Below are positions 5,322-29,715 of a stretch of 64,000 bases of DNA, piece by piece (position 1 is the stretch's first letter; each line of letters opens with the position of its first letter). This stretch comes from an uncultured bacterium (GTDB taxonomy: Bacteria; Patescibacteriota; Patescibacteriia; Patescibacteriales; UBA12465), in contig OW818634.1 in assembly GCA_942492765.1 (NCBI GenBank), positions 89,159-153,158 on the forward strand, written 5' to 3'. A program made the translations under genes and the position numbers. The notes under the pieces were generated by a model, which was not told the DNA's origin, did no database searches, and was given only the letters and a program-made list of their open reading frames with translations.

Positions 5322-6482
5322 CTACATTCCAGCATGCATCTGCAGGGCGAAAGATAGTAGCGTCGGCGAATACAGGGATGAAGCTGTATAGTCGATAGTC
5401 GAAGCCGCGTCTCCTTTCCAGGCAATCAGGCTGGTGTAATCGATAGTGATTGCCGGTGACGTCCAATAGTCAATACCTGCAATCAAGGGCGTGGTAGTGA
5501 AAGTGGCGGCCGTATCTACTTTGTATAACAATTGCGGAGTGCCAGGATTAGTAATAGCTGAATTATTGATATATAACGTGACGTTATATTTATCAGCTAC
5601 CGTGTCATTAACTATCCCTATTCTGGTAATCCAGCTGCTAGTCACATCGCCGACATCTCCGGGCAGCACTAAGGCTGGCACGGAGGGATAGATATGGCCA
5701 TTTTGGCAATAAATGTAGTAAGTACCGCCGCCAGTAGCTGCTGGCCTAAAATATATCGACGAGGTGTCGCTGGCCCAATTAGAAACGCCGGAGGCTGTCA
5801 TGTTCTCACCCCAGATGAGCTGTTCCCAGTCATCTGCATTTTTCGTGAAGGTATACGACAGGTATCTTATTCCGCCATTCATAACAGTCGTGCTCAAAGC
5901 ATAAGCGTTTAGAGGACTGAGTGGCCAACCCGCGGTCGTACCTTCAACCCAGCACCAGCCGCCAGTTAAACTATAGCCATATATATAGGTCGTAGGCAGA
6001 CCGATAGTATATGTCCACTTACCGCCGGATAAGCTTGAAGCAATCAGATAGATGTCTCCATTAGGCGAAACCGTAACGGTAGTGATGTCGATAGTGCCCG
6101 ATAAGACAGTAGCGTCAGGCAAAGTGGCTGTGATAGTGAAGCTGCCAACGGTCGAAAAGGTATGAGCGATCATTCTCCCGATGACAGAAGTGCCATCGCT
6201 GAAAACAAAGTTCACGCCATCTACGCCTTGGCCATCAGGACCGGCAACCATGAAGAGCTGCGGAATATTAACTATCCCAGTAGCAGGCGCTCCAGGTGCT
6301 GGAGCTTTCAGGCTATTAGCCGCTGTCCCCATCTTGAGCGTGTAGCCGTTGTCGCTCCAATTGTTATCGGGAGTGAGTTCTGGCATCTTCTCACAAGCCG
6401 TAAAGATCGCTATCAAGGCGAACATGACGGCGATTAGCCCATTCTGTTGCAGAACGGCTAAAAGATTAACTGATTTTTTCAT
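5322..6482 (-). CDS. Hypothetical lipoprotein/secreted protein with a PKD/Ig-like segment
   Basis: 386 aa. The N-terminal hydrophobic segment ends in a lipobox-like IFTAC. The stretch VNFVFSDGTSVIGRMIAHTFSTVGSFTITATLPDATVLSGTIDI resembles a PKD-type beta-sandwich. The remainder is T/S/G/Y-rich. Confidence 0.5.
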   Translation of the reverse strand: MKKSVNLLAVLQQNGLIAVMFALIAIFTACEKMPELTPDNNWSDNGYTLKMGTAANSLKAPAPGAPATGIVNIPQLFMVAGPDGQGVDGVNFVFSDGTSVIGRMIAHTFSTVGSFTITATLPDATVLSGTIDITTVTVSPNGDIYLIASSLSGGKWTYTIGLPTTYIYGYSLTGGWCWVEGTTAGWPLSPLNAYALSTTVMNGGIRYLSYTFTKNADDWEQLIWGENMTASGVSNWASDTSSIYFRPAATGGGTYYIYCQNGHIYPSVPALVLPGDVGDVTSSWITRIGIVNDTVADKYNVTLYINNSAITNPGTPQLLYKVDTAATFTTTPLIAGIDYWTSPAITIDYTSLIAWKGDAASTIDYTASSLYSPTLLSFALQMHAGM

Positions 6483-21769: not shown

Positions 21770-22297
21770 TTATTTTTTTTCTTCGATCGCTTTCAAGACA
21801 TTGACCAGGTTGCGCAGATTGCCGCCGAGAGCATTGACGAAGCCGGAAATCGGCGCGTTAATGGATCCGACTAATCTGGCATACAGCTCGTTCTTGCTCG
21901 GCAATTCAGACAGGGCTTCGACTTCTTTCTTGGAAAGAAGCTTGCCATCTAAGATGCCTCCTAAGAAGAAGATGCGGCCTTCCTTATCCTTATCCTTGCG
22001 GAAAGTGCCTAGGACTTTGGCTGGAGCGACCTCATCCTCGTAAGAGAAGATAGCCGCAACCTTGCCGTCGAAATCCCTGACATTGATATCCATCTTGTTC
22101 TCTTTCAAGGCCATGTTCATCAAGGTCTTCTTGGCGACGTAATATTCGCTGCCAGCTTCCCTTAATTTATCGCGTAAGTTTTCGTTATCCTTAACGCCGA
22201 AAGCGTTAAAGCCCGCGAACACCATAGACTTGGACTTCTTGATCTTTTCGTTCAGATTGCGAAAGATCTCTCCTTTTTGAATTTTGTTCTTTGGCAT
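21770..22297 (-). CDS. rplJ: 50S ribosomal protein L10
   Basis: 175 aa, immediately upstream of rplL. Typical L10 N-domain (SMVFAGFNAFGVKDNENLRDKLREAGSEYYVAKKTL). Confidence 0.93.
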   Translation of the reverse strand: MPKNKIQKGEIFRNLNEKIKKSKSMVFAGFNAFGVKDNENLRDKLREAGSEYYVAKKTLMNMALKENKMDINVRDFDGKVAAIFSYEDEVAPAKVLGTFRKDKDKEGRIFFLGGILDGKLLSKKEVEALSELPSKNELYARLVGSINAPISGFVNALGGNLRNLVNVLKAIEEKK

Positions 22298-22482
22298 ATA
22301 TATCTATAATAATAAAAAATCCGTGGCTAGCCATGGACATTCAAGAAAATACCTAAGATTAGAGTATTTGTACCTCGGCGAGACTTATAATCGATTCGGC
22401 TTATAGGCTTCTTCGAAAAGCTGGCTGTCTATGGCGTTATTTAATTACTTTGATATATTAGCAGATTCTGTTTATTTGTCAA
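22298..22482 (-). promoter_or_regulatory. rplJ promoter plus ~150-nt leader with a terminator-like attenuator (candidate L10-leader-type autoregulatory element)
   Basis: The minus strand reads TTGACA (22482-22477), a 16-nt spacer, then TAATAT (22460-22455). The leader contains a hairpin at 22321-22336 followed on the minus strand by U6 (22320-22314), 16 nt before the ATG. No Shine-Dalgarno sequence is visible. Confidence 0.5.
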
Positions 22483-22500
22483 GAGATTTTAGAGCTAAGA

Positions 22501-22531
22501 AAAAAGACCCGAATTGATTCCGGGCCTTTTT
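22501..22531 (-). terminator. Intrinsic terminator of the 22544-23164 gene
   Basis: Minus strand: ggcccgga..ttcgggtc hairpin with one bulge, followed by T5. Confidence 0.6.
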
Positions 22532-22543
22532 AAAGGGCAAGGG

Positions 22544-24132: not shown

Positions 24133-25365
24133 TTATAGCTCATTGCTGATTTTTGGGCTAGATATCGTTTTTGGAGATATTTTTTTGAGCTTTCGGCCGC
24201 GGTTGGCGAAACGATGCGCCTCTTCCCTGAGTTTCAATAAGGTCGGCTTGATGTTTTCTGCCAAACCGCGCAGAGGTTTCTTGGCTTCGGCCGTAAAGAC
24301 GAGCTTATCGCCACCAAGCTTGGAGATACCGACGAGCGGGATATTCAGATTATTAGCCCTGAAGACCCGAGAGAGGAAGCTTATCTGCGGCGTTCCGCCA
24401 TCGATCATGATGAGATCAGGCGCGCGCCATTCGCCGTGCTTGAAACGGCGCAAGAGCATCTCGCTAAGCGCGCGTTCGTCGTCTCCGGCCGGAGCTTCTT
24501 TTATCTTGAATAGGCGGTATTCGTCTTTAGCCGCTTCTCCATTTTCAAAAACGACCATGGATCCATAAGTTTCCTTGCCGGCATGATGCGAGATGTCATA
24601 GCCTTCGAGACGGTCGATCTTATGTTCCCCTAAATCATCTTCGCGAACCAGTAAGGCGACATCTTGCATATGTTTCAGAGCCCTTATCTTGTCGGGATTT
24701 TCTTTTTTCAGTTTCGCGATCAGGCGCTTTTTTTCGCCGGAAAGCAAGAGGATGATATTATTGATATTTTTCTGATAGTCTTTTTTAGAAATAACGCCGA
24801 CGCAGGCGCCCGGGCATAGCCCGATCTGGTAGTCGAAGCAAGCTTTGCCGTCAGGATTTCCGGCTGTACCCATTGGAGCGCAGGTGCCATAAGGAAAGAC
24901 GCGGCGTATCAGGCGCAGCGCACTCTGAATCAGATAGAAAGATTGGTAGGGGCCGAAAATCTTAGCTTGGGACTTCTTATTCAAAGACGAGGCGGAAAAT
25001 TTTTTCAAATCAGTGCCGCGGACGATGAGCGGCTTAGGAAAATCGGCCTTGGGGATGACAACATAAATGAAAGAACGGTCATCCTTGTCTTTTACATTAT
25101 ATTTCGGCCAATGTTTTTTGATTTCCTTGGCCTCCAAGATTATCGCCTCTAAGAGGGTTTCGGTCTCTTCGTATTTAATATTCGCCGCCAGCGCGACCAT
25201 CTCGGCGATACGCTGGTCAATATTCTTCTGGAAATATTGGCTGAGACGATTGCGCAAGCTAGTCGCCCGGCCGATATATAAGATTTTTCCAGCCTTATCA
25301 AGCCAGAAATAGATTCCGGGTTTTTTAGGGATATTTTTCAGTTTGTCTTTAAGATTTGAACTCAT
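24133..25365 (-). CDS. uvrC: Excinuclease ABC subunit C, short form (GIY-YIG plus RNase-H-like endonuclease domains only)
   Basis: 410 aa. GIY-YIG N-terminus (PGIYFWLDKAGKILYIGRATSLRNRLSQYF). Cys-rich segment CFDYQIGLCPGACVG. C-terminal endonuclease region LEGYDISHHAGKETYGSMVVFENGEAAKDEYRLFKI. It ends without an HhH region. Confidence 0.85.
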   Translation of the reverse strand: MSSNLKDKLKNIPKKPGIYFWLDKAGKILYIGRATSLRNRLSQYFQKNIDQRIAEMVALAANIKYEETETLLEAIILEAKEIKKHWPKYNVKDKDDRSFIYVVIPKADFPKPLIVRGTDLKKFSASSLNKKSQAKIFGPYQSFYLIQSALRLIRRVFPYGTCAPMGTAGNPDGKACFDYQIGLCPGACVGVISKKDYQKNINNIILLLSGEKKRLIAKLKKENPDKIRALKHMQDVALLVREDDLGEHKIDRLEGYDISHHAGKETYGSMVVFENGEAAKDEYRLFKIKEAPAGDDERALSEMLLRRFKHGEWRAPDLIMIDGGTPQISFLSRVFRANNLNIPLVGISKLGGDKLVFTAEAKKPLRGLAENIKPTLLKLREEAHRFANRGRKLKKISPKTISSPKISNEL

Positions 25366-25654
25366 AAAGATATCCAGTTAGGCCAATCCGCCCCTTCTTT
25401 ATAATTATACCCTCTTTTTTGAGCATAGCTATCTTTTTGGCAGTTCCGCTGGCGAAGCCGCCGACTGATCCGTCAGAACGGACGACGCGATGACAAGGCA
25501 CTTGCGGCGCGTAGGGGTTCTTGTTCAAGGCATTACCGACAGCGCGGCTCGCGCGCGGATGGCGCAAAGCGCCAGCGATAGCTCTATAAGTAGAAACCTT
25601 GCCGCGAGGTATCAGGGAGGTTTTTTGATAAACTTTTTCTTTGAAACTAGTCAT
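25349..25654 (-). CDS. ogt: Methylated-DNA--protein-cysteine methyltransferase, catalytic (C-terminal) domain only
   Basis: 101 aa. Active-site PCHRVV motif and preceding IPRGKVSTYRAIA helix-turn-helix region. The 3' end overlaps the uvrC start by 17 nt. Confidence 0.85.
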   Translation of the reverse strand: MTSFKEKVYQKTSLIPRGKVSTYRAIAGALRHPRASRAVGNALNKNPYAPQVPCHRVVRSDGSVGGFASGTAKKIAMLKKEGIIIKKGRIGLTGYLYEFKS

Positions 25655-25658
25655 AGTC

Positions 25659-25687
25659 TTGACGGATTTAATTTTTTAGCCTAGTGT
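25659..25687 (+). promoter_or_regulatory. Possible promoter for candidate ncRNA C (weaker match)
   Basis: TTGACG (25659-25664), a 17-nt spacer, then TAGTGT (25682-25687). It is divergent from ogt, whose ATG lies 5 nt away. Confidence 0.35.
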
Positions 25688-25693
25688 TTAGGT

Positions 25694-25950
25694 ATCGATA
25701 AGTTGTTGGGTTCTTTTAATCAATTCCGAGACCGGGTAAAACCGGAAAAGACCGAAGAAGATTATTTACGGATATTTAAGCCGAGGAAAACTGTTTAATT
25801 GAGGTGCGCCTTAATTAGCACTCCGCTGACATATCAACCCATGATAGGGATAAAAATCCGATACGGTCACTAGACCGAGAATTTTCTAAGTGAACTCCTG
25901 CGCCTTGAGCCCAGGACTGATAAACTTAGAATCTTCTCGGTTCTTTTTTT
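25694..25950 (+). ncRNA. Candidate structured ncRNA C (~255 nt), family not identified
   Basis: No ORF. It ends in an extended hairpin 25875-25890/25925-40 (14 of 16 positions paired) that encloses an inner stem (uccug...cagga), followed by T-rich 25941-25950. Internal helices: 25797-25804/25809-25816 (8 bp, UGCG loop), 25732-25735/25742-25745, and long-range 25707-25712/25836-25841. Confidence 0.45.
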
Positions 25951-25980
25951 ATTTAATTTTAGTATAAGTTTACTTATCTA

Positions 25981-26009
25981 TTGACAAATATTTTATTATG
26001 TGATAATAT
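25981..26009 (+). promoter_or_regulatory. Near-consensus sigma70-type promoter driving candidate ncRNA B
   Basis: TTGACA (25981-25986), a 17-nt spacer, then TAATAT (26004-26009). The spacer is almost identical to the promoter at 20979-21007. Confidence 0.6.
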
Positions 26010-26015
26010 ATAACC

Positions 26016-26330
26016 ATAAACATAAAATATATTTTTATGTATAAAATGTTTTGCTGGCGGCGCCCTCGGGGTATCGCAGTAATCTAAGTTCTTCTCAGTT
26101 CATAAATCCTCTCATTCAAAACAGCTAGAAAATCTAGCTATGGTAAAAATCAAGGGACGTAAATTCCTACAGCAAACTATTGTGTAATTAAGAACTATAA
26201 TATTAGTTGTAAATTCAATAGCACGCTAGCATCGGAACAAGTCCAGAAAAATTACAAAATTTAGAGAGGTATCAATCACATCGGGCGGGGCCCAAATTTG
26301 GACCGGTAGTCACAAGCTACCGGTTTTTTT
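26016..26330 (+). ncRNA. Candidate structured ncRNA B (~315 nt), family not identified
   Basis: Bounded by the promoter above and by the hairpin accggtag (26302-26309) / ctaccggt (26317-26324) plus T7. Stops occur in all frames. Helices: 26020-26027/26033-26040, 26123-26129/26133-26139, 26177-26182/26216-26221 enclosing 26193-26197/26204-26208, and long-range cctctc (26108-26113) / gagagg (26264-26269). Confidence 0.5.
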
Positions 26331-27189
26331 ATTTGCTTATCAACCCGATCATCAGGCTGCAGGCGATGGCTAGTCCGGCGCCGAAGTATTGGATCTTATT
26401 GACCTTCTCTTTGTTAAAGACTACGCCGAGGATTAGAGCGATGACCACGAAGCTCTCGGTGATGGCGACAGTGATGGATAGTTCCTTTTCGGCGACCGCC
26501 AAGACATAGAAGACCCAAGCTGCCGTATCTACGATAACCATGGCCAGAATGAGTTTCCAATTGATCCGGCAAACCTTAAAGAACGGAGATAGTGTTTGAC
26601 GGCTGATGATATACCCGAAACTGAAGAGGCCGCAGGTCAGCCACGGCAACCATAAGGCCATAATCGGACTAATTTCTTTAGCTTGAGTAGCGGTCAAGAA
26701 GTTTACTAGAGCGACCAAAGCCGATGACAATAGGGCTAATAAAGACCCCTTCTCTAAGAAATCTTTCTTGTTAATCTTCGTAAAATCGACGGATACCAAG
26801 ATAATGCCGATGAATAAGATAATGATCAGAATCACCTGCGTTAGATTCAGTCTTTCCGCGAAGAAGATTATACCCAGCAGGATGGTCAAAGGCAACTCTA
26901 CTGATAGGATTATTTCTACCACCGAGAGCTTGCCGACATGCAGAGCTTTCATATGGACGAAACCGCTGGCAAAGCCAGCTATTCCTAAAATAACCAAATT
27001 GATTATCTGTCTCGGAGCGAGTGATGATATGTCATTAAAGACAAAGGGCAGCAAGGCAAAAGAGCTGAAAAGCGTTATCCAGAACAAGGTTCCGACTGTG
27101 CCAATTTTTCTGACGGTCCTTTGAATCAGAAAATCTCCGATTCCCCAGCCGAGCATAGCCCCGAAAGCGAATAAGATTGGTAGAGTCAT
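26329..27189 (-). CDS. EamA/DMT-superfamily transporter
   Basis: 286 aa with ~10 TM helices in two EamA-like halves. Confidence 0.8.
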   Translation of the reverse strand: MTLPILFAFGAMLGWGIGDFLIQRTVRKIGTVGTLFWITLFSSFALLPFVFNDISSLAPRQIINLVILGIAGFASGFVHMKALHVGKLSVVEIILSVELPLTILLGIIFFAERLNLTQVILIIILFIGIILVSVDFTKINKKDFLEKGSLLALLSSALVALVNFLTATQAKEISPIMALWLPWLTCGLFSFGYIISRQTLSPFFKVCRINWKLILAMVIVDTAAWVFYVLAVAEKELSITVAITESFVVIALILGVVFNKEKVNKIQYFGAGLAIACSLMIGLISK

Positions 27190-27192
27190 AGA

Positions 27193-29715
27193 TTATTTTA
27201 AATATTCTTTCAGATATTTCCCGGTAATGCTGGCTGGCTCGCGCGCGATGTCCTCGGGCGCGCCGCTAGCGACTAAGCGTCCGCCCTCTTCTCCGCCTTC
27301 CGGCCCGAGGTCGATGATATAATCCATGGCTTTGAGCATGTGCATATTATGCTCAATCACTAGGACTGAGTTCCCTTTCTCTACTAGCTTGTTCAAGACC
27401 GAGAGCAGCATATCAATATCATGGTAATGCAGCCCGGTCGTCGGTTCATCTAATAAATAAAGAGTGCGTTTTCCTAAAGTATGCGTCAGCTCTTTGGCGA
27501 TCTTGATGCGCTGGGCTTCGCCGCCCGATAAGGTTGTCGCGCTCTGGCCGATCTTCAGATAGCCGAGGCCGACAGATTGCAGAACTTTTAACTTATCGGT
27601 GATAAAATAATTGCCCTCGAAATGTTCAATCGCTTCATCAATGGTTGAATCCAGAACTTCGGCGATATTCTTGCCTTTATATTTAACTTGCAGAGTTTCA
27701 CGGTTGAAACGCTTGCCGCGACAGACTTCGCATTCAACCAGCACTGGCGGCAGGAAATGCATCTCAATCAGGTTAGCTCCGGCGCCTTCGCAGGCCTCAC
27801 AGCGGCCGCCTGGACGATTAAAGGAGAAGCGGCCGATAGAATAACCGCGTTCGCGGGATTCAGGAAGTGAGGCAAAGAAATCGCGAATCGGGGTGAAGAT
27901 ACCGGTATAGGTCGCGGGGTTAGAGCGCGGCGTGCGGCCGATCGGCGATTGGTCGATGACGACTACTTTATTGATATATTCCGCTCCTTTGATTTCTTTG
28001 ACGCGTTCTAGCTTGGCATTGCCTGGGCGATTCTTGATATGGGTGATATTCCTATAGATGACTTCATATAATAGCGAAGACTTTCCGCCTCCGGAAACGC
28101 CGCTGATGCCGACGAGACGGCCGAGCGGAATATCGACATTCAGATTCTTCAGATTATTCGCATAAGCGCCGCGGATGCGCAGGGTGCCGTGATTCTGCTC
28201 TCGACGCTTATTCGGAATCGCTATTTCTTTTTGGCCGTAAAGGTATTGCAACGTCAGGGATTTTTTTACAGCCTCTTTATTCTTCTCTTCTTTCAATAGA
28301 TCTTTAGTATTGCCGATAGCCACGACTTCTCCGCCATGAACGCCAGCGAGCGGACCGAGGTCGACTAGATAATCAGATTCCAGAATAGTCCTTTCGTCGT
28401 GTTCGACGATGATGACAGTATTATGCTTGTCGCGCAGAGCCTTGAGCGTTTCTATCAAGCGGTCAGTATCGCGTTCATGCAACCCGATAGTCGGTTCATC
28501 AAGGACATATAGAGTCCGGGACAGATGCGAACCGATTTGCGAAGACAGGCGGATGCGCTGAGCCTCGCCGCCTGATAAGGTATGCGCTTCGCGCTCCAGG
28601 GACAGATAATTCAATCCGACTTTCAATAAGAACTCTAAACGGCTGATGATCTGGATAACGACGTTCTCGGCGATAATGCGCTGGCGTTTCGTCATCTTTT
28701 CGTAATAAGAATTGAAGAAGGCTAGGGTCTTTTTTAAAGGAAGCTCGCAAACGGCGGCGATGTTCTTGTTATTAATCCTGACTGACAAGGCTTCTGGGCG
28801 CAGGCGCTGGCCATGGCATTCCGGGCATGGCTCCTCGCTGAAGAAATCCACGCGGCCTAAGCCGGTGCATTCCGGGCAAGCGCCATGAGGAGAATTGAAG
28901 GAGAATAAGCGCGGCTCAACTTCCGGGAAAGAGAAATTATCATTCGGGCAGGTCCAATTTGCGGATAATAAGAATTCTTGATCCTTGAATTTGGCAATCA
29001 AAAGCCCTTTGCTATATTCGAGAGAATTCTCGACGGCTTCGAAGAGGCGTGTCTGGTCATTTAACATCACCTTGTCGATGACGATGTCGATATCATGCTT
29101 TTGTTTAGGAGCCAGCTTAACCTGTTCGCGCAGCGAATGGAATTTTCCATCAATGCGGGATTCGCCATAGCCGAGCGACAGATAATTATATAGGAGCTGA
29201 TAATATTCGCCTTTGCGATCGCGGACAACCGGAGATAGGATAGTCACGTATTCCTCCTTTAAGTCAGTGCCGCGATTAATGATAATATCTACCATTTCTT
29301 CAACGGTCAGCTTCTCAATTTTCGTGCCGCAGACCGGACAGAAGACTTCACCGACTCGGGCGTAAAGCACGCGCAAGTAATCATAGATATCAGTCAACGT
29401 CCCGACGGTGGAACGCGGATTATGAGAGAGAGCTTTCTGGTCGATAGATATGGAAGGCGCTAGACCGATCATCTCGTCAACGTCAGCCGGCTTCTTCTGA
29501 CCTAGGAATTGACGCATATAGGGCGATAAAGACTCGACGTACTGTCTCTGCCCTTCCGCAAAGATCGTATCAAAAGCCAGCGACGATTTGCCACTGCCAG
29601 AGACGCCGGTAATGACCGTCAGCTTATTGTGCGGTATTTCCAGGTTGATATTCTTAAGATTATGCGTCCGTGCGCCGCGGATAATCAGTTTTTCAGTTTT
29701 ATCTTTTTCAGGCAT
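27193..29715 (-). CDS. uvrA: Excinuclease ABC subunit A, lacking the insertion domain
   Basis: 840 aa. Two ABC modules ([50 protein letters not shown]) and zinc modules. The CPECTGLG and [10 protein letters not shown] halves are only 13 residues apart (codons at 28816-28878). Confidence 0.95.

Follow-up and report, generated by a model that had tools for sequence, protein, structure and literature searches.

The window analysed here is a stretch of 64,000 nucleotides from an uncultured bacterium (positions 89,159 to 153,158 of contig OW818634.1, assembly GCA_942492765.1). In this window a gap of 674 bp free of open reading frames (ORFs), 25655-26328, separates the gene of an Ogt/MGMT domain protein of 101 aa (ogt, 25349-25654) from that of an EamA transporter (eamA, 26329-27189). 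Both genes are on the minus strand, as are uvrA (27193-29715), beyond eamA, and the gene of a UvrC-like protein of 410 aa (uvrC, 24133-25365), beyond ogt. The further neighbours are genes for a SIMPL protein, a hypothetical protein and rplJ, so that every gene around the gap is on the minus strand. The left half of the gap holds the subject of this report: a unit of the plus strand that is very likely a genuine gene for a structured non-coding RNA (ncRNA), at about 25694-25950. An earlier note on this DNA had proposed such an RNA of about 255 nt and had called the gap the largest of the window; it is the largest internal ORF-free one. The features of the unit are the following.

25659-25687, plus strand: sigma-70-type promoter TTGACG-17-TAGTGT (-35 at 25659-25664, 17-nt spacer, -10 at 25682-25687)
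25710-25716, plus strand: motif GUUCUUU of the 5' region, unpaired in the consensus structures
25732-25745, plus strand: hairpin H1, CCGG-GUAAAA-CCGG, whose closing pair covaries (C:G, G:C, U:A) across loci
25750-25754, plus strand: 5' strand of helix P2, GACCG, pairing with 25864-25868
25771-25775, plus strand: 5' strand of helix P4, GAUAU, pairing with AUAUC at 25831-25835
25780-25785, plus strand: 5' strand of helix P3, GCCGAG, pairing with CUCCGC at 25821-25826 around a C·C mismatch (25782/25824)
25786-25791, plus strand: A-rich bulge GAAAAC between P3 and H3
25792-25820, plus strand: hairpin H3, an 8-bp stem with a 3-bp extension and a UGCG loop, a variable extension of P3
25821-25835, plus strand: 3' strand of P3 (25821-25826), 3' side of a 4x4 internal loop (25827-25830) and 3' strand of P4 (25831-25835)
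25838-25849, plus strand: hairpin H4, CCC-AUGAUA-GGG, covarying
25864-25868, plus strand: 3' strand of P2, CGGUC, pairing with 25750-25754
25873-25950, plus strand: compound intrinsic terminator (outer stem 25873-25891/25924-25942, inner stem 25896-25900/25912-25916, then C and U7 at 25943-25950)

The promoter lies where the earlier note had seen it diverge from ogt: only 4 nt separate its -35 hexamer from ogt, whose start codon is at 25654 on the minus strand, and transcription is predicted to start near 25694. At the other end, the compound hairpin followed by a T-run described in that note is also present. It spans 70 nt (25873-25942), includes the inner stem and is followed by a C and seven T (25944-25950). 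Its folding energy is -30.9 kcal/mol, against -16.6 ± 2.9 for shuffled sequences (z = -4.9; 0/200 shuffles as good). A simple terminator scanner missed this hairpin because its loop limit is 8 nt. The whole unit has a folding z of -3.1 and the reverse strand folds equally well, so folding energy alone leaves the strand unassigned. As the note had it, the gap has no ORF worth the name (at most 31 aa, with TTG or GTG starts, none with ATG), and no plus-strand protein gene follows the unit in the window; only a second RNA-like unit does.

Conservation at the uvrA-uvrC locus

A UvrC-based scan of GTDB species representatives yielded 80 loci (numbered with the prefix L), and the gene order uvrA-(eamA)-(ogt)-uvrC is kept in all of them. 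With nhmmer and a single query sequence, L001 was the only locus to match the candidate; the RNA unit fills its eamA-ogt gap of 293 bp exactly. Non-coding gaps of 270-430 nt are nevertheless found at the same position in many other loci. On the strand equivalent to plus, these gaps have, on the side of ogt or uvrC, a promoter close to consensus (TTGACA-17-TAnnAT); they also have a GUUCUU motif, the hairpin N-CGG-RUAAAA-CCG-N', whose closing pair covaries, and, on the side of uvrA or eamA, an intrinsic terminator. The RNA gene always points away from ogt/uvrC and towards uvrA/eamA. A promoter TTGAC-N16-18-TAnnnT stands at the same position in L001, L114, L115, L004, L010 and L016; with the window this makes all 7 of the subgroup-A sequences in which it was read, the eighth (L116) being unclear. 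Of 60 syntenic gaps, 42 have a promoter on the RNA's strand with five or more consecutive T 100-420 nt further on; on the opposite strand one gap has this combination.

We built a covariance model (R1) from the window and L001, given H1, P2, H3, H4 and the terminator as structure, and searched it against 950 kb of relatives' loci and the window. Eleven loci matched on the expected strand with E < 0.01 (L004, L016, L010, L025, L027, L028, L018, L069, L031, L078 and L044), as did a remnant in L003. Every match below this threshold was inside the syntenic gap, the only others being reverse-strand matches to the terminator hairpin in the window and L001; the full-length model found no copies elsewhere in the window or in the searched DNA of relatives. 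Three more members (L114, L115 and L116) were reached via Ogt homologues and their contigs. Units at a greater distance (groups B and C) have an almost identical H1 (CCGGAUAAAACCGGAAAA) as well as P2, and by eye a helix with the same C·C mismatch can be recognised in them (e.g. CUCGAGUC/GACUCCAG in L027, UCUCGAUUA/UAAUCCAGA in L071); their membership is based on R1 E-values from 1e-5 to 6e-3 and on inspection. A descriptor combining a C·C helix with a flanking one lacked the specificity to prove that the distant units belong to the family: it had hits in 25/76 real sequences and in about 15/76 shuffles. The pattern CCGAGRAAA-N-CTCCGC-N-CTTCTCGGT in metagenomes gave 33 loci, none fitting the model, and these were set aside as chance matches.

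As far as sampled, the family is restricted to Candidatus Falkowbacteria, within the Patescibacteria or Candidate Phyla Radiation (CPR), and fixed at the uvrA-uvrC gap. The window itself is from a relative of Candidatus Falkowbacteria; its UvrC-like protein is 90% identical to proteins of metagenome-assembled genomes labelled Patescibacteria group or Falkowbacteria. The RNA is missing from relatives as close as L001: in L002 eamA abuts uvrC, and L006 and L014 have no gap. L003 keeps, at 5882-6000 between uvrA and uvrC, only the 3' terminator hairpin and a trace of the 3' strand of P2; a deletion has removed the rest of the RNA gene. In L124-L127, where the RNA is absent, the flanking genes abut as well. 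The persistence of the hairpin in L003 suggests that it also acts as the terminator of uvrA.

Three independent metagenome contigs (L119, L120 and L121) end about 105-115 nt upstream of ogt, inside the 5' part of the homologous RNA region. In L128-L133, from another lineage, a gene of 55 aa has been called on the opposite strand inside the homologous gap, and is probably a spurious ORF.

Fold, covariation and strand

The layout of the RNA comprises the 5' segment with GUUCUUU, H1, a two-branch domain closed by P2, and the terminator. The first branch is an irregular rod formed by P4, the 4x4 internal loop, P3 with its C·C mismatch, the GAAAAC bulge and an optional H3; the second branch is H4. 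Eight close sequences, the window and relatives, were aligned to R1 (alignment A6), a comparison the earlier note had proposed for the gap upstream of ogt, and a single covarying fold was found across them. RNAalifold on A6 recovered P3 and P4, and 27/43 of the predicted pairs were compensatory; R1 cannot have imposed these two helices, because neither is in its structure. When the full structure is laid on A6, 95.2% of the cells are paired and 29/48 pairs have changed on both sides. As a control the partners were slid by 1-3 columns, which left 2-6 pairs changed on both sides and 28-49% pairing. In 500 shuffles the observed value was never reached for four of the five measures, and once for the fifth, further pair types. 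Judged from these alignments, the compensatory substitutions show selection keeping the fold.

The individual elements contribute unequally. P4 has changed on both sides in 5/5 pairs, with 97.5% of cells paired, and P3 in 4/5. In L115, P3 reads GUCAGG/CCUCAC, i.e. three double changes, and in L010 CUCGAG/CUCCAG, the C·C mismatch being kept in both. The bulge is RAAAAY in 8/9 compared sequences (the window, L001, L114, L115, L116, L010, L016 and L021) and AAAAUU in L004. H1, the CCGG/CCGG hairpin already pointed out at 25732-25745 and found here with a GUAAAA loop, has changed on both sides in 3/5 pairs. H4 occurs as CCC/GGG, CUC/GAG (L115) and UCC/GGA (L010, L016), with 100% of cells paired, and the outer stem of the terminator shows both-side changes in 6/9 and 3/8 pairs. 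P2 is paired in only 77.5% of the cells because A6 is partly out of register there; read directly, its partners vary together, as GACCAG/CUGGUC in L004 and GAACCAA/UUGGUUC in L010 and L016 for subgroup A, and as GCUGC/GCAGC, GCCGC/GCGGC and GGUCGC/GCGACC for group B.

The 8-bp hairpin with a UGCG loop reported in the earlier note (25797-25816) is the core of H3: its stem, 25797-25804/25809-25816, includes one G·U pair, and the extension reaches 25792/25820. Compensatory changes separate the window and L001 in this hairpin. It is much longer in L010 and L116 and missing from L114, in which P3 closes directly on a GAAAA loop; H3 is therefore an optional extension. The loss of the whole of H3 in L114, and the indels that break reading frames among the window, L001 and L114, leave no conserved ORF.

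The long-range helix put forward in the note was not the right one. Its two strands, 25707-25712 and 25836-25841, are indeed complementary (TGGGTT/AACCCA), but 25838-25840 sits in the covarying H4 and the pairing is rejected for this reason; the conserved long-range helices are P2 (25750-54/25864-68) and P4 (25771-75/25831-35). Another helix, 25769-78/25851-60, was considered first and dropped, since P4 covaries in all eight sequences.

A CCGAGRA-like heptamer occurs four times in the unit (25726, 25752, 25781 and 25875). A terminator/antiterminator switch opposing these heptamers to UUCUCGG (25934-40) was rejected: the copies have the same sense and no alternative pairing is conserved. L115 has changed the heptamer copy of P3 to GUCAGGG, compensated within P3, and the similarity between the 5' strands of P3 and of the terminator is lost there.

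The 5' motif recurs apart from the fold. GTTC[TC]T is found in the first 100 nt of 22/61 promoter-to-terminator units of the syntenic gaps, against about 3% expected. GTTC[TC]T(T) occurs at 25710-25716 and at 26096-26102 in the window, and in L010, L022, L037, L054, L060, L062, L073, L077, L078 and others, including units with seemingly unrelated bodies; the motif may serve as a seed, bind a protein or mark a site of processing. As a half-site of LexA type, GTTC showed on inspection no partner half-site at a consistent spacing, and this candidate was discarded.

The strand follows from three asymmetries. Within the structure the G·U and A·C cells are 19:4, the promoter and T-run have the orientation given above (42/60 against 1/60), and a U-tract follows the hairpin on the plus strand only; because of these we assign the RNA to the plus strand. 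They also bear on a rival reading, in which the plus strand has no separate RNA gene and the conserved fold is that of minus-strand transcripts, as the terminator of uvrA or eamA together with a structured 5' leader or inter-cistronic spacer of the ogt-uvrC mRNA; the earlier note had named a mere ogt-uvrC promoter or UTR on the minus strand as refuting its proposal. Wherever it occurs, the element is found with uvrA and uvrC; a promoter of ogt or a read-through transcript must cross this DNA, the ATG being 4 nt from the putative -35; and L003 retains only the hairpin next to uvrA. Watson-Crick covariation is symmetric, the two strands fold with equal energies, and directly after the hairpin the minus strand of several members shows a TTGACC-like hexamer and a short GUUUUG tract. 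All this fits such a leader, but no minus-strand promoter is conserved in position, and the G·U pairs, the promoters and the U-tracts speak for the opposite strand. We consider this explanation improbable.

Compensatory substitutions likewise tell against the idea that the unit is what remains of a mobile element, a duplicated element or a small protein gene in decay. Decay could account for the presence or absence of the unit among close relatives, the truncated copy of L003, the fourfold heptamer and the three metagenome contigs ending inside the unit. But the unit is present in a single copy that never changes locus, its fold is under selection, and it has neither terminal inverted repeats nor a transposase nor a conserved ORF. 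A remnant is thus very unlikely.

Possible roles and neighbouring elements

The explanation that we favour, with moderate confidence, is a structured RNA, about 257 nt long and transcribed on its own, that belongs to a new Falkowbacteria family and has an inferred regulatory role. The earlier note's proposal of an independent plus-strand ncRNA is borne out by the conserved promoter and U-tract, the covarying fold and the G·U bias. Several points weigh on the other side. The -10 hexamer of the window, TAGTGT, is weak; expression, the transcription start and the 3' end are predictions. Watson-Crick covariation alone cannot distinguish strands, the detailed fold comes from only eight close sequences of about six lineages, and in A6 the elements H1, P2, H3, H4 and the terminator had been fitted to the structure given to R1. 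Losses in close relatives (L002, L003) imply that the RNA gene is dispensable and not essential. The breadth of the family is uncertain because a second model (R2, a 90-position core, default filters) recovered only its eight training sequences and no unit of groups B or C. Finally, no target was found for the RNA, and no ligand or protein partner was identified.

As for function, it is somewhat more probable than not that the RNA is a regulator, acting in trans or in cis. The promoter at 25659-25687 would drive the RNA and the terminator at 25873-25950 would end it. The C·C helix and the A-rich bulge may be a binding site for a protein or a ligand; the selected fold, with the invariance of these two features, points to a specific partner. 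In addition to such a binding site, or as an alternative to it, the GUUCUUU segment may pair with targets. One candidate target, rplJ, was rejected: AAAGAAC at its codons 3-5 is a codon choice for MPKNK, found in 9/51 loci only and not tracking with the presence of the RNA.

The geometry of the locus makes insulation or antisense modulation of ogt/uvrC plausible. Since the RNA gene interrupts an operon that is tightly packed in relatives without it, the terminator and convergent transcription would probably insulate or modulate read-through from uvrA to ogt/uvrC. Because the -35 lies so close to the ogt ATG, transcripts reaching ogt from upstream must be antisense to the RNA. The RNA could even be nothing but a cis-antisense RNA, which would pair or collide with this read-through and so uncouple or repress ogt/uvrC, its fold serving stability or kissing-loop recognition. 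In every locus the gene converges on uvrA/eamA and has ogt/uvrC at its back, pointing the other way, and the operon is uninterrupted where the RNA is absent; moreover the hairpin has no good U-tract in the direction of uvrA transcription, which makes read-through plausible. The multi-helix fold with its invariant C·C and A-rich bulge exceeds, however, what simple antisense needs, and the minus-strand transcript across the RNA gene is only putative, the overlap being likely from geometry. A purely cis-antisense function is therefore unlikely in our view, although it overlaps in part with the independently transcribed regulatory RNA that we favour and does not exclude it.

A more ambitious proposal, that the RNA belongs to a CPR-specific structured class whose C·C helix and bulge form a pocket for a protein, a metabolite or a metal ion, and that it is a sensor or regulator of nucleotide-excision repair, is speculative and quite improbable. 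If true, it would mean a dedicated RNA regulator of excision repair, lying antisense inside the uvrA-uvrC operon, in organisms with minimal regulatory repertoires. More generally, an RNA of about 250 nt with a selected fold at one excision-repair locus is a testable candidate for lineage-specific RNA regulation. CPR/Patescibacteria genomes are small and densely packed, and the RNA is kept across many Falkowbacteria species. The C·C mismatch and the A-rich bulge are well-defined sites at which candidate ligands or protein partners can be sought, and the alignment and models could seed an Rfam family and improve annotation where callers place spurious small ORFs, e.g. in L128-L133.

The rest of the gap is occupied by a second promoter-to-terminator unit on the plus strand, 25981-26326. 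Its promoter, TTGACA-17-TAATAT, is at 25981-26009 and its terminator at 26300-26326. The unit measures about 300 nt, has a folding z of -4.7, and has neither an Rfam match nor an ORF; it is probably a separate ncRNA gene. The tandem arrangement of two units is also found in L115, and units similar to the second one exist in L005 and L007, which have a CCAAGAGGAAGC-AGAGCCUCC stretch in common.

In some lineages the divergent promoter region contains a perfect DnaA-box 9-mer, TGTGGATAA, on the minus strand of the locus. It is promoter-proximal upstream of uvrC in L025 (5947-5955), L027 (5941-5949), L028 (5941-5949), L032 (5917-5925 and 5952-5960), L069 (5946-5954), L071 (4931-4939), L033 (882-890) and L046 (2417-2425). 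Where this was read (L025, L027, L028, L032 and L069), the box is immediately upstream of the -35 of the RNA promoter. It is absent from the gap of the window. These boxes suggest that DnaA may act on the divergent promoter region in some lineages.

Some other observations concern the surroundings. The UvrC-like protein has Pfam matches to a GIY-YIG domain and an RNase H-like endonuclease domain only, and is shorter than a typical UvrC (about 600 aa); its ORF and the ogt stop overlap by 17 nt. The minus strand carries 45/54 long ORFs of the window, and the cumulative GC skew reaches its maximum near 28-29 kb. Upstream of rplJ (21770-22297), the minus-strand region 22298-22543 contains a hairpin and T-run ending about 15 nt before the rplJ ATG, which are conserved in nearly all loci. 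The Rfam L10_leader model is above threshold in L032, L069 and L078 and below it in the window, where the region is probably a divergent L10 leader.

Comparison with known RNA classes

The Rfam scan that the earlier note had recommended matched no family: none of the 4227 families of Rfam 15 reached its gathering score in the 64-kb window or in the homologous gaps of 14 relatives' loci. A permissive cmscan of the gap gave only chance matches (E >= 3.1), the best with 19.2 bits (threshold 80) and 16.5 bits (threshold 38); the latter, SdsR_RyeB (E = 4.5), reflects terminator likeness only. ARAGORN detected no transfer RNA (tRNA) or transfer-messenger RNA (tmRNA) in the window. A full-text search of the literature found no description of this RNA, and nothing on Falkowbacteria ncRNAs or CPR small RNAs (sRNAs) at this locus. 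The RNA family is so far undescribed.

Could it nevertheless be a known RNA, i.e. an RNase P RNA, 6S RNA, signal recognition particle (SRP) RNA, tmRNA or riboswitch, so diverged in the CPR that it escapes the Rfam models? Its length of about 250 nt is within the size range of such RNAs, and the string GAGGAAAAC is loosely like conserved region I (CR-I) of RNase P RNA. The earlier note had rightly called this likeness superficial but had placed the string one base off; it is at 25783-25791. The resemblance to CR-I/P4 is limited to this GAGGAAA-like string, which varies in relatives (GAGAAAAAC, GGGAAAAC) and whose two halves here fall in the P3 strand and in the bulge instead of forming a P4 strand. 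RNase P RNA also lacks an Rfam match here, and neither a P4 partner nor CR-II to CR-V is present. The consensus fold is not a 6S-like rod with paired ends, the 5' end of the RNA being unpaired, and no Rfam 6S match was found; nor were the defining features of SRP RNA found in the Rfam scans or the consensus fold. A riboswitch or cis leader needs a gene downstream on the same strand, where there is only the RNA-like unit (in the window and L115) or the convergent 3' end of eamA or uvrA. Moreover the chance-level matches of the gap have no counterpart in relatives, and the gene is missing in close relatives, which is impossible for an essential RNA. We thus give hardly any credence to a diverged known RNA.

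The RNA fits a more general kind, at once a stand-alone bacterial sRNA and a structured orphan ncRNA motif. Bacterial sRNAs with their own sigma-70 promoter and Rho-independent terminator often keep synteny and little sequence. The RNA of the window resembles them in having its own sigma-70 promoter, an intergenic unit of a few hundred nt and a 3' hairpin with a U-tract, and also in its short unpaired 5' motif, its fast sequence change at a fixed locus and its dispensability in some relatives. In contrast to most base-pairing sRNAs, it has a far more elaborate covarying multi-helix body, and it is found only in a CPR lineage.

With orphan structured ncRNA motifs discovered by comparative genomics, e.g. 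the raiA motif and other survey candidates, it shares a conserved junction fold defined by covariation, invariant non-canonical features and restriction to a lineage. It differs from them by its uvrA-uvrC synteny antisense to the operon and by its compound terminator, and has no match in Rfam 15. Cis-antisense RNAs and “excludon”-type convergent transcription units inside operons are a known class, and the likeness lies in the arrangement: the RNA gene is inserted the opposite way between genes which relatives without it keep together as one unbroken operon, and any read-through transcript would be fully complementary to the RNA. The minus-strand overlap is only putative, and the conserved, tertiary-looking features of the RNA exceed the needs of the simple antisense units of that class.

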